Counted from the first letter of the stretch, positions 158-8,481 are shown. The stretch is DNA of 64,000 nucleotides from Bailinhaonella thermotolerans (GCF_003594875.1 NZ_QZEY01000015.1:1-64000), one strand, 5' to 3'. The notes: generated by a model not told the origin, from the sequence alone. Translations and numbers: made by a program.

Positions 158-388
158 CTACATCTTCTTGTAGACGATGGGCATCACCAGGCCGATGATG
201 GCCAGGGCCTCGGCGAACACCAGACCGAGGATGATCTGCTGCCGCAGGAGCTGGAACATCTCCGGCTGGCGGGCGATCGCCTGGACGCCGTGCCCGAAGA
301 CGAGGCCGATGCCGATGCCCGGGCCGATGGCCGCGAGGCCGTAGCCGATCGCGGTCACGTCTCCGGTGAGCTGGGCGGCGAGGGACAT
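158..388 (-). CDS. atpE: F-type ATP synthase subunit c paralog (76 aa), apparently orphan
   Basis: Internal Met of ORF 158..508. Translation [45 protein letters not shown]...[22 protein letters not shown] has the glycine-rich helix 1, the ARQPE polar loop and a helix-2 carboxylate (Glu) as in actinobacterial AtpE. RBS ggaagggga sits 5 nt upstream. No atpB upstream or atpF downstream; a palindromic GC-rich region follows. Confidence 0.8.
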
Positions 389-577
389 GTCCTTCCCCTT
401 CCTGATCGGTGGACTAGACCGAACAGGACGAGGACGGGGTTCCTGGAGAACGGGCGGGGTTCCGAGTGACGGGGGATCGCTGCACCCATTCGACCTCCTC
501 GCCTCCACCCTTGCGCATCCCTCCAGCCCCGGACAAGGCGTGATCGCGGACGGCGAAACCCGGGTCGCCGGGGGTGA

Positions 578-3500
578 TCAGAGGGTCAGCCGGGTGATCG
601 CGGACTCCACGGCGGCCAGGCGGTCGGCCACGAGGCCCAGGGCGGCGACGGCTCGCGTCGCGGGCTCGTCGCCCGCGCCGCCGAGGGCCTGGTCGCGGAC
701 GTACGCCGCCTTGATCTCGGTCCAGCGGCGGGCCCGCTCGGGGGTCAGCGTGCCGCGCAGCTCGGCGAGCTTGAGGAGGTTGGCCTCCGCGCCGCTCGCC
801 AGCATCTGGGCCTCAGCCTGGTAGTGGTCGTCGATCAGGGCCTCCAGCTCATCCCGGTTCATGGCCGGGACGACCCGCTCGGCCAGCTTGTTCATGTTCC
901 GGTAGGAGCCCTGGAGCTGGAACGGGGGCTCGGTGCGGGAGGCGTCGGACCGCGCGGCGGAGTCGATGTAGGCGCGGTTCACCGCCATGACGACCTCCTG
1001 GACCCGCACGAGGTGGCGCAGCACGGCGAGGATCTGGTCGAGCTCGGCCGCGGAGTACGGCCGGGCCAGCCCGTCGGGGTGGGCGGTGGGGTCGCCCTGC
1101 GCCAGCCGTACGAGGAGGTCCAGGTCGGAGCGCCCGGCGGCGGCCAGCGGGGCCAGGACCGGGTTGGACGTCAGGGCGTTCTCCAGGTAGCTGAGGGCGA
1201 AGACCTCGTCGCGGCCGGAGAGGACGTCGCCCAGGTTCCACACGTCGGCCCGGTTCGCGAGCATGTCGGGGACGCGGAACCGGCGGCCGGACTCGGTGTA
1301 CGGGTTGCCGGCCATGCAGACGGCGAAGCGCTTCCCGCGCAGGTCGTAGGTGCGGGTGACGCCGTTCCAGACGCCCTCCATGCGCCGCTGGGCGTCGCAC
1401 AGGGAGATGAACCGCTGCAGCAGCTCGGGGCTGGTGTGCTGGATGTCGTCGAGGTAGAGCAGGACGTTGCCGCCCATCTCCAGGGCGAAGTTGATCTTGT
1501 CCACCTCCTGCCTGGCGGTGGCGTCGGGGGCCTCGGCGGGGTCCAGGCTCGTCACTGCGTGGCCCAGCGCGGGCCCGTTGACCTTGACGAACGTCAGGCC
1601 GAGGCGGTCGGCGACGTACTCCATCAGGGTGGTCTTGCCGTATCCCGGCGGGGAGATCAGCAGGAGCAGCCCCATCTGGTCCGTGCGCTTGGCGTCCCCG
1701 GCCGCGCCGAGCTGCTTGGCCAGGTTGTCGCCGATGAGCGGCAGGTAGACCTCGTCGAGCAGGCGGTTGCGGACGAACGCGCTCATCACCCGCGGCCGGT
1801 ACTCCTCCAGGCGCAGCCGCGCGCGCTCCCGGGCCACCAGGTCGTTGCGGAGCCGCTGGTAGGCGCGGTACGCCGGGACGCGTTCGGCGCGGAAGGCGCG
1901 GGTGCGGGCGAGGGTCTCGTCCAGGCGCAGGCCGAGACGGCGGCCGGCGATCCGGGGGTGGGCGCCGAGGAGGCCGTCCACGGTCGCGGTGAGCGTCGCC
2001 GCGGACTCGTGCCGGGGCAGGGCGCCCCCGCAGAGCTCGATCGCGATCGCCTCGGGCAGGTCGTGCTCGGCGCCCGCGGCCTCCTCCACGGCGCCCGACG
2101 CCCGCTCCGCCGCGAGGTAGGCCCGGAACCACGCCTCCGCGAGCTGCCGCCGGGCCGCCAGGTCGTCGCCCAGCGCGCGCAGGTCGTCGTCGAACTCCTT
2201 GGCGCGCGGCCCGCCCAGCGCCCGGCGGAACCGCTCCACCAGGCGGCGGGCCCCGGCGCCGGTCACGAACCCGAACGGCGCGGTCGCCAGCTCCTCGAAG
2301 AGGTACTCCCCGGCCAGGCCCGCGCCGCCCGCCGCGCTGACTCCACCAGCCGCGCCCGTCCCGCCGGAGTGCCCGTCCCCGGGGTGCCCGGTGAAGGCGG
2401 TGATCGCCGCGTCCAGCTCCGCGCACAGGGCGGCGATCGCGTCCCCGCCGAGCCCGAACGCCTCCCGGGCCCGACCGAGCGACCGCGCCCGGGTCGTCCA
2501 CGTCCCCCGCGCCCGCTCGTCCGCGCCGAAGGCCCAGAAGAGCTGCGCCGCCGCCCGCGCCGCCGGGGGATACCGCAGCGTGCCCGCCCCGGCGTGCAGC
2601 CGCAGCAGCGCGTCGAGGATCGCCGCCGCGTCGTGGTCGTGCACGCCGCGCTCGTACCCCTCGTCGTACCGGGACGCGGCGGCCCGCCGTACGACGTCGA
2701 GCAGCCCGCCCTCGGCCACCGCGGCCTCGTGCAGCGCCTCCAGCGTCAGCCCCCGCTCGCCGCCGGCCCGCGGCCCGGGACCCCCCGCCCCGTTCGCGCC
2801 GGTCGCGTGGCTCAGGCCGTACGGCGCGGCGCCCGACGCCTCGGCGAGGACGGCCGCGGCCAGGTGCTCGGCGCGGTACACCTCGGGCGTCTCGGAGACC
2901 AGGAGCTGGTCCCAGTACGGCCGGGTGGCCTCGAACGCGGCGTCGCGGACGGGCTGCCGGTAGTCGGTGCCGGTGATGGCGTACGCCATGCCGCCCTCGT
3001 GCGGCACGAGCGTCAGGTCGAGCGGCTGGGTGTTGACCGCGAACCGGTGCCGGCCCAGCCGGATCGCCGCGCCGCCGGCGTCGTAGAGGTCGGCCCGGTC
3101 GCGCAGCCCCCGCCCGGCCTCCTGGCGCGCGGCCTTGAGCCGCCCGGCCAGTTCCTCGGCGCGGACCTGGTCGCCGAGGGCGCGGAGCTCCTCGGCCACC
3201 GCGCGGACCCGCGCCACCATCGGGTCCGCCGCGAAGTAGGTGTTCACCTCGTCCTGCGAGCCCAGGGCGGCCAGGCGCCGCCGTACCCCGGACAGGACGC
3301 GCTCGGCCGACTCCATCAGCCGGTCCGCGCGCCGCGCGCGCTCGTCCAGGAGCGCCTGCCGCCGCGAGGAGAACGCCTCGTAGACGTCCTCCCGCTTGGT
3401 CGCCAGCTCGGCCAGGAAGTCGTCGAAGTCGGCGAACCGCGTCTCCAGGTTCTCCACCTGGAGCAGCAGCCGCCCGAGCTGTTCCTCGCACCGCTCCGGG

Positions 3501-7832: not shown

Positions 7833-7860
7833 GTGGTCCCTTGAGGTGAGGAGACGTACG

Positions 7861-8481
7861 TCAGGTGAGAGGTCGTTCCGGGTCGAGCCCGGCGTCGTAC
7901 GGCATGACGCGGAAGAACTCGCCCGCCGTGTCGTAGTCGAAGATCAGCGCGCGGTCGCCGGCGCGCAGCGGCGCGTCCCCGTCGATCCCCCGGACCTGGA
8001 CGATCGCGGTGGAGCCGTCCGCGGCGCGCACCTCGGCCTGCCCGAAGTCCCCGGTCACGCGTCCGGTGCGGATCACGCACATCCGCCCCACGAAGTCGTT
8101 CCGTGAGGGCGCCCGCTCGCTCGCGAAGACCCGCCGCAGCGGCGTCACCAGCGACCGGGTCCCGAGCCAGGCGGCCCCGAGGGCGACGGCGAGCACGAGC
8201 ACGCGCATCGCCGTACCGGAGACCAGGGCGCTTCCGGCCAGGCTGACGAACCAGGCCAGCACGACGAGCAGCGAGAGCACGACGGTGACCGGAACGCCGC
8301 CGAGGCCGAGCGCCGGGAGAAAACCCGAGGAGGCGTTTTCTGCGCCGACGTCATCCCCGTCCAGAATGTCGAGATCGAGCCCGATGAGCAGGGCCAGGAG
8401 CCAGTAGATGACGACGATCACCAGGGCGAAGCTGAACAACACGGTGGGAAAAGCAAGTGCGACCCCCATGAATTCGCCCAT
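7861..8481 (-). CDS. NfeD-like (YuaF/YqiJ-type) membrane protein with C-terminal OB-fold beta-barrel
   Basis: C-terminal 206 aa of ORF 7861..9873, starting MGEFMGVALAF. Three predicted TM helices are followed by a soluble domain (GRMCVIRTGRVTGDFGQAEVRAADGSTAIVQVRG...LIFDYD). Stop lies 28 bp before the flotillin start, the classic NfeD-SPFH pairing. Confidence 0.8.
   Translation of the reverse strand: MGEFMGVALAFPTVLFSFALVIVVIYWLLALLIGLDLDILDGDDVGAENASSGFLPALGLGGVPVTVVLSLLVVLAWFVSLAGSALVSGTAMRVLVLAVALGAAWLGTRSLVTPLRRVFASERAPSRNDFVGRMCVIRTGRVTGDFGQAEVRAADGSTAIVQVRGIDGDAPLRAGDRALIFDYDTAGEFFRVMPYDAGLDPERPLT

Follow-up and report, generated by a model that had tools for sequence, protein, structure and literature searches.

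SPFH cages pair with AAA+ machines at the membrane, as HflK/C does with FtsH and prohibitin with m-AAA; the HflK/C cage is periplasmic, whereas the bulk of a flotillin is cytoplasmic. Genes for an SPFH scaffold and an AAA+ ATPase are likewise paired in the locus analyzed here, at one end of a 64,000-nt stretch of DNA from Bailinhaonella thermotolerans (GCF_003594875.1, NZ_QZEY01000015.1:1-64000; hereafter the window). There, the genes of a YqiJ/NfeD-like membrane protein, a flotillin, and a giant AAA+ protein follow one another, and are themselves followed by a gene for a paralogue of the F-type ATP synthase c-subunit. The giant protein differs from the ATPases of these complexes in having neither a protease domain nor a transmembrane (TM) segment, and in its size of ~1,700 aa, which include a propeller and a long helical arm. 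Its modeled AAA+ core appears nearer to the RuvB and MoxR types than to the classical FtsH clade.

A multi-TM NfeD-like gene directly upstream of a flotillin gene is a feature shared with yqiJ-yqiK of Escherichia coli and yuaF-floT of Bacillus subtilis, which are NfeD-flotillin (SPFH2) operons (Hinderhofer et al. 2009, PMC2636767). In E. coli, unlike in the triad, there is no third gene, and downstream of yqiK come genes for small RNAs and toxins. AAA+-linked flotillins form a much tighter subgroup, in which those of Actinomycetota and Myxococcota are 49% identical, while identity to E. coli YqiK is 29%.

The association of flotillin, YqiJ, and AAA+ proteins is already published, as a neighborhood observation, and the module is not new. 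In their comparative genomics of phage-shock proteins, Ravi et al. (2024, mSystems, PMC11237479) describe an operon with a CesT/Tir-like protein (a superfamily in which they place DUF2170, or YjfI), PspA, a flotillin, an AAA+ protein, and a YqiJ/YuaF-type protein with three TM segments. Abbreviated operons, reduced to the flotillin and the YqiJ/YuaF protein and in some cases joined by the AAA+ ATPase, have a wider distribution and, as these authors propose, may act with a PspA encoded elsewhere. All three components of this form recur in the window in the published order, with an AAA+ protein that carries an N-terminal helix and a beta-propeller; unlike in the full operon, no gene for PspA, a CesT-like protein, or phospholipase D is linked to them. 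With the PspA and DUF2170 proteins of a 'Flavobacteriales' metagenome-assembled genome (MAG; locus L090) as queries, tblastn gave no match either in the window or in any of the 80 actinomycete loci described below; hence the window has the abbreviated form of the operon. The ATPase is cited in that paper without a Pfam accession, so equating it with the DUF3686 protein of the window rests on the match of architecture and neighborhood.

A conserved unit of three genes

All four genes that a first-pass annotation had placed on the minus strand of the window are present and co-oriented, with gaps of 28 bp (YqiJ-like/flotillin), 79 bp (flotillin/giant gene), and 189 bp (giant gene/c-subunit). Third-position G+C of their open reading frames (ORFs) is of coding type (0.86-0.99), the G+C content of the region being ~73%, and their GenBank products are consecutive (RJL24412 to RJL24409) on one 208,804-bp contig of B. 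thermotolerans.

The annotation had taken the four genes for a conserved-looking operon. Synteny was followed in two sets of loci. The genome set, from a scan of one genome per species, contains 80 actinomycete loci in which the giant homologue is 64-75% identical; the metagenome set contains 80 loci in which it is 41-70% identical, and flotillin and YqiJ-like genes are counted in it among the loci with room for the gene concerned. In 78 of the 80 actinomycete loci, the YqiJ-like, flotillin, and AAA+ genes share strand and order; the remaining two loci end at contig edges. Among metagenome loci, the flotillin gene lies directly upstream on the same strand in 51/54 and the YqiJ-like gene is present in 43/47. 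The c-subunit is missing from all the 80 genome loci (even at E <= 10) and from all the 80 metagenome loci. Since the triad is kept across loci while the c-subunit is found in 0/160, the conserved unit consists of the YqiJ-like, flotillin, and giant AAA+ genes, and the c-subunit is a local addition. Co-conservation of the block therefore fails for the fourth gene and holds for the other three.

A similar arrangement is found in other phyla. A small TM protein and a flotillin are encoded directly upstream of the AAA+ gene in Vibrio chagasii, Myxococcus fulvus, a Verrucomicrobiales MAG, and the 'Flavobacteriales' MAG, and these neighbors are orthologues of the window proteins (E = 2e-26 to 9e-222 for the flotillin; E = 6e-6 to 4e-40 for the YqiJ-like profile). 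Members of the giant family are named in Vibrio, Reinekea, Pseudoalteromonas, Myxococcus, Pyxidicoccus, and Enhygromyxa, several of the myxobacterial ones with an N-terminal PilZ domain, and others are found in Vallitalea, Mobilitalea, Verrucomicrobiales, Acidobacteriota, and Armatimonadota. In the gene calls of Sphaerisporangium and Saccharothrix, the genes of the triad overlap or are separated by 7-10 bp, there are unrelated genes on both sides, and the gene that comes directly after the AAA+ gene is encoded by the other strand. The proposal of a conserved membrane-associated module is thus borne out for the NfeD-like protein, the flotillin, and the AAA+ protein (78/78 evaluable actinomycete loci, metagenomes, and other phyla), whose grouping is not due to chance. 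The further suggestion of an uncharacterized membrane-associated machine stands for the triad and not for its c-ring or ion-coupled component, which is unsupported because the c-subunit is outside the conserved set.

Some loci contain additional genes. In L090, a 93-aa Gly/Ala-rich protein is encoded between the flotillin and the AAA+ gene (5625-5906); it was seen in no other locus. In Sphaerisporangium viridialbum (L081:15705-24974), the triad is followed by RloB/AAA_21, and then by GrpE, Hsp70, an 853-aa protein, DO-GTPase, and GAP1, which are of conflict type and unrelated to the triad.

The giant AAA+ protein and its membrane partners

A C-terminal AAA+ ATPase was the only module that the first-pass annotation had recognized in the giant protein, which it could assign to no characterized family. 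Both statements need revision. Pfam also matches DUF3686 (PF12458) at aa 49-494 (E = 1e-223) and DUF7902 (PF25472) at aa 615-699 (E = 1.3e-30), and the protein belongs to the Pfam DUF3686/DUF7902 family, which is named though functionally uncharacterized; its name at NCBI is DNA repair ATPase. The AAA+ domain extends over aa ~1330-1500, with matches to Pfam AAA (E = 4.9e-6, aa ~1340-1465), AAA_5, and AAA_22. There are >6,500 homologues, with identities of 64-75% across the actinomycete orders. In a collection of 1.84 billion proteins the family forms 729 clusters at 50% identity, and its full-length members have 1,600-1,900 aa. The N-terminal 500 aa have no match among PDB sequences; the assignment of a beta-propeller to the DUF3686 region comes from a high-confidence model and from matches to propeller folds. 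In a model of aa 503-1702 (predicted local distance difference test, pLDDT, of 85.5), ~830 residues of long helices are followed by the AAA+ core and then by a helical C-terminal region. Hydrophobicity analysis found no TM segment in the giant protein, which is therefore cytoplasmic.

In 37 diverse members the motifs of the AAA+ core show little or no variation, and for Walker A and B this extends to 60-68 cluster representatives. The Walker B motif of the family reads hhYLDDIQH, with Asp-Asp in essentially every member examined, and the pore-loop position of the core reads LGHAVTSLDP, without an aromatic residue. In Foldseek searches, RuvB and the MoxR-type NorQ/CbbQ align best with the modeled core, followed by MCM, FtsH, and Cdc48 (E = 3e-5 to 1e-3). 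For NorQ/CbbQ and RuvB the values are E = 3e-5 to 2e-4 with TM-scores to the target of 0.45-0.59, and the core shares with them a predicted beta-hairpin, located between helix 3 and the sensor-1 strand (model residues 933-946, or aa 1435-1448). Such a hairpin would mark the giant protein as a member of the pre-sensor-1-hairpin superclade, and not of the classical AAA clade. It differs from the MoxR types and RuvB in having no VWA partner gene, in its low identity (13-20%), in the Asp-Asp of Walker B, and in the ~1,300 residues that precede the core. Similarity of sequence to VCP and Rix7 is limited to the P-loop region (~37-69 residues). Matches of the 1,200-residue model to dynein heavy chains were set aside: Foldseek ranks them high, yet with very long alignments and TM-scores of 0.05-0.13, and they pair long helices and an AAA domain.

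The start codon of the giant gene deserves a comment. The current RefSeq start (1665 aa, WP_242454612.1) drops a cross-phylum N-terminal motif, G-x-Y-E-V-x-R-x-R-L, which lies in window 5558-5686 on the minus strand, and a start giving 1697 or 1702 aa agrees better with the homologues. At the same end, several of the longer DUF3686 AAA+ homologues (1,840-2,050 aa) carry a PilZ domain (PF07238). This is the case for P0343, P0352, P0361, P0365, P0367-P0369, P0371, and P0386, one of which is from Polyangiaceae, and hints at a control of the module by cyclic di-GMP in those lineages.

The flotillin has an N-terminal TM anchor (aa 1-34), an SPFH/Band_7 domain, a long coiled coil rich in Ala, Glu, and Arg (these make up 184 of the 350 residues of aa 211-560), and a conserved C-terminal region. 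Full-length scans of the 688-aa protein with Pfam and NCBIfam found nothing, and Band_7 (PF01145) appears, with E = 2.4e-11, only when the N-terminal aa 1-240 are scanned alone. The protein shares 29% identity with E. coli YqiK over 459 aa (E = 7e-40), 49% with the Myxococcus fulvus flotillin encoded beside an AAA+ homologue, and 27% with that of Vibrio chagasii; its record (RJL24411.1) is named flotillin family protein. The Band_7 N-terminus, the homology with YqiK, and the anchor agree with the earlier identification of the gene as a flotillin. Full-length scans and precomputed Pfam tables also miss Band_7 in the neighboring flotillins of L083 and L086-L090, presumably because of the long biased coiled coil. 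As the domain is detectable only by scanning the N-terminus, automated neighborhood surveys would undercount the association with flotillin.

The 206-aa product of the first gene goes in UniProt and at NCBI by the names DUF1449 family protein and OB-fold-containing protein (RJL24412.1). It has ~3 N-terminal TM segments, with hydrophobic stretches at aa 2-112, and a C-terminal soluble domain that is conserved in an alignment of 20 orthologues (VGR.CVIRTGRV..FGQAEV...DGS.A.VQVR). The profile of these 20 orthologues aligns with E. coli YqiJ in hhalign with a probability of 52% (E = 1.4e-4), collinearly over 141 columns. Full-length scans of the window protein gave no Pfam or NCBIfam match, a weak YqiJ_N match (E = 0.021) is found in one of the 20 orthologues, and the family profile has no match among PDB sequences. 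We therefore regard the protein as YqiJ/NfeD-like with moderate confidence: the TM layout, the position beside an SPFH gene, and the hhalign result favor the original NfeD-like assignment, which is weaker than that of its neighbors for want of a Pfam match.

The c-subunit gene and the flanks of the block

The c-subunit matches PF00137 with E = 5.6e-14 (52.6 bits, for a cutoff of 24) but reaches only 78.5 of the 114 bits that the actinobacterial equivalog NF005900 sets as cutoff. With the GPGIGIG, ARQPE, and FAEALA motifs and the ion-binding Glu preserved, it would seem to be functional. Among proteins of its kind it is a bona fide AtpE, with the ion-binding Glu and the RQPE loop, but it differs from AtpE in being outside an atp operon, in falling short of the equivalog cutoff, and in having a second copy in the genome. 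That copy, RJL24505.1, is its best non-self match (73% identity), looks more canonical, and is encoded ~96 protein accession numbers from RJL24409.1 on the same contig. The other 118 matches listed are atpE-type proteins with 59-73% identity, the named ones from Streptosporangiales. The window has no second c-subunit gene, other atp genes not having been scanned for. The gene has the AAA+ gene upstream and, downstream, 157 bases of noncoding appearance to the end of the window; GGAAGGGGAAGG is found just 5' of its ATG. Its description as an orphan paralogue of the ATP synthase c-subunit can be kept, and from its sequence and surroundings it is best read as an intact, lineage-specific atpE duplicate that lies by chance beside the module in B. 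thermotolerans.

The features of the block are collected in Table 1. The 189-bp gap before the c-subunit gene contains no recognizable terminator, and its fold is no better than those of shuffled sequences (z = 0.71). Past the c-subunit gene there is a G+C hairpin, ~45 nt from the stop codon and with 80 nt remaining to the end of the window. It has no U tract, and its arm, GCGCGGCCGCGC, is itself palindromic and present in two copies. The hairpin is a possible end of the transcript.

At the other end, the module is divergent from a gene for a sugar-binding-protein-like product, which starts at 8845 on the plus strand. A promoter scan found no consensus sigma-70 site upstream of the module, and the same scan found no terminator on the minus strand. 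Two candidate promoters were spotted by eye, one of them resembling sites of extracytoplasmic function (ECF) sigma factors; the pattern of the latter, GGAAC-N18-CGTT, has four matches in the window, for 0.95 expected.

An upstream element of different sequence, GGGAACTTT-N4-CTTTA-N7-CTTTATCT-N2-ATATAGTC, is common to ~30 of 71 actinomycete loci (Nonomuraea, Streptosporangium, Planomonospora). It is located 45-100 nt 5' of the start of the yqiJ-like gene (L007, L008, L010, L025, L031, L039-L045, and others) and is probably a promoter or an operator. No element of the GGGAACTTT type is found in the window.

Table 1. Genes, protein regions, and candidate signals of the block, in window positions
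Feature	Position (nt)	Strand	Details
YqiJ/NfeD-like small membrane protein gene	7861..8481	-	206 aa; ORF; RJL24412.1; first gene of the module
Flotillin gene (YqiK/FloT type)	5766..7832	-	688 aa; ORF; RJL24411.1
Giant AAA+ protein gene (DUF3686/DUF7902 family)	578..5686	-	1702 aa; RJL24410.1
DUF3686 region	4205..5542	-	aa 49-494; N-terminal long helix, then divergent beta-propeller of ~6-7 blades
Helical middle region	1700..4204	-	~830 aa; helices of up to 58 residues, two small beta insertions
DUF7902	3590-3844	-	aa 615-699; inside the helical middle region
AAA+ ATPase core	1187..1699	-	Pfam AAA, AAA_5, AAA_22
Walker A	1631-1651	-	PPGYGKT; in the AAA+ core
Walker B	1436-1459	-	LYLDDIQH, with Asp-Asp instead of Asp-Glu; in the AAA+ core
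Sensor-1 strand	1292-1315	-	MAGNPYTE; in the AAA+ core
Candidate Arg finger	1244-1264	-	MLANRAD; in the AAA+ core
F-type ATP synthase c-subunit paralogue gene	158..388	-	76 aa; PF00137; RJL24409.1; adjoins the module
Upstream intergenic region of the module	8482..8844	-	presumed location of the promoter
Candidate promoter TTGCAA-N17-TATGTT	8547-8575	-	weak; spotted by eye
Candidate ECF-sigma-like promoter GGAAC-N18-CGTT	8603-8629	-	spotted by eye
Perfect 12-bp G+C hairpin	81..113	-	arms GCGCGGCCGCGC at 81-92 and 102-113, 9-nt loop; RNA fold

Possible functions of the triad

We give a probability of about 0.6 to the reading that the triad uses ATP to remodel flotillin scaffolds when the envelope is under stress, the c-subunit gene being an adjacent atpE duplicate. 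With its N-terminal TM segment as anchor and the YqiJ-like partner as organizer, the flotillin would oligomerize into a scaffold along the cytoplasmic side of the membrane. On this scaffold, a ring of the AAA+ protein would dock by its long helical arms and propellers. Hydrolysis of ATP would then assemble, disassemble, or reshape the scaffold, or load or extract clients, as part of membrane maintenance under stress. By analogy, the established pairings of SPFH and AAA+ proteins (HflK/C-FtsH and prohibitin-m-AAA) make such a remodeler plausible. A more specific version, which we hold only tentatively and with more doubt than belief, makes the DUF3686 AAA+ protein a dedicated remodeler of flotillin assemblies, a ring with six helical arms tipped by propellers that would grip flotillin/YqiJ cages and open, close, or recycle them.

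Several points weigh against this remodeling role. Physical contact among the three proteins is something that we infer from synteny only. The triad is not always complete: in a contig of Acidobacteriota the flotillin only is found beside the AAA+ gene, without the YqiJ-like partner, and one partner is missing in three metagenome loci. The Asp-Asp of Walker B is family-wide, so the rate or the mechanism of hydrolysis may be unusual, and together with the lack of an aromatic residue in the pore loop it argues against the mode of a classical threading unfoldase. A separate transcription of the c-subunit is not demonstrable from the sequence, as the 189-bp gap has no recognizable terminator. Finally, no papers were found on DUF3686 or PF12458, or on a 'DNA repair ATPase' with a flotillin.

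A different substrate is suggested by the loci in which DUF2170 and PspA are encoded immediately upstream of the yqiJ-flotillin-AAA+ genes, namely L090 and 10-12 of 47 metagenome loci, all recovered with the window protein as query. The AAA+ protein might act on polymers of the PspA type (ESCRT-III superfamily) much as Vps4 acts on ESCRT-III, with flotillin and YqiJ only recruiting it to damaged membrane; the PspA substrate of actinomycetes would then be encoded elsewhere in the genome, in line with the view that abbreviated operons work with distant PspA homologues (Ravi et al. 2024, PMC11237479). We regard this, the main rival of the remodeling role, as unlikely, if still to be reckoned with. 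PspA is linked in 0/80 actinomycete loci and absent from 35/47 metagenome loci, whereas the link with flotillin is near-universal, and the modeled core of the AAA+ protein, nearest to RuvB/MoxR, with a predicted pre-sensor-1 hairpin and without an aromatic pore loop, would place it outside the Vps4/spastin clade. The idea that all four genes encode one membrane machine, with a c-ring for ion coupling or as a pore, draws on the c-subunit gene itself, which follows the giant gene after 189 bp in the same orientation, without a recognizable terminator between them, and is intact, with its ion-binding Glu, a good ribosome-binding site, and a strong hairpin after it. Such a machine is nevertheless very improbable, given 0/160 related loci with the c-subunit, best matches to housekeeping atpE genes (62-73% identity), and the unrelated gene, often on the opposite strand, that follows the AAA+ gene in relatives. 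That B. thermotolerans recruited an extra c-ring into the flotillin/AAA+ machine would be most surprising.

The triad might also be an anti-phage or conflict system, in which the large NTPase would be the sensor and the membrane proteins the effectors, and the neighbors in two loci resemble defense or toxin genes (RloB/AAA_21 and an Hsp70-GAP1-DO-GTPase system in L081; HipA, TelA, and an RNA ligase/KTI12-like protein in L086). Neighborhoods, however, vary from genome to genome. PADLOC-DB 2.0 gives for the giant protein only matches at the level of the P-loop, to IetA and mad8 (E >= 0.0019), and none for the other three proteins, and conservation looks mostly vertical, with 64-75% identity of the giant protein across actinomycete orders and 49% of the flotillin between Actinomycetota and Myxococcota. 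With no PADLOC match beyond the P-loop and an apparently vertical conservation, a role in defense is little supported, and we think it improbable. Even less weight can be given to the literal reading of the database name, with the giant protein acting in DNA repair and its adjacency to flotillin incidental. This reading has in its favor the names at NCBI and Pfam, weak matches to RuvB restricted to the P-loop (E ~1e-5 to 1e-4), and RuvB as a structural neighbor. The RuvB scores are of 21-25 bits, against cutoffs of 282-299, no literature support was found for the name, and the linkage to two membrane proteins is tight across phyla. Since this linkage goes with the lack of any DNA-binding or nuclease domain in Pfam and NCBIfam scans of the giant protein, a function in DNA repair is little supported and most unlikely. 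The name probably comes from a coiled-coil likeness to SbcC/Rad50-type proteins annotated as 'ATPase involved in DNA repair'.

In conclusion, the window yields a set of three genes instead of four and a family for the giant protein, and the idea of a c-ring is dropped. The database name of that family, DNA repair ATPase, is misleading. The occasional linkage to PspA connects the module to membrane repair. The control and the role of bacterial flotillin assemblies are unsettled, and a large ATPase that is nearly always encoded beside one flotillin subfamily, in at least five phyla, gives a handle on them. If the DUF3686 AAA+ protein were indeed a dedicated remodeler of these assemblies, it would supply the energy so far missing from the picture of bacterial 'raft' dynamics, as a functional analogue of Vps4 or NSF for SPFH scaffolds.

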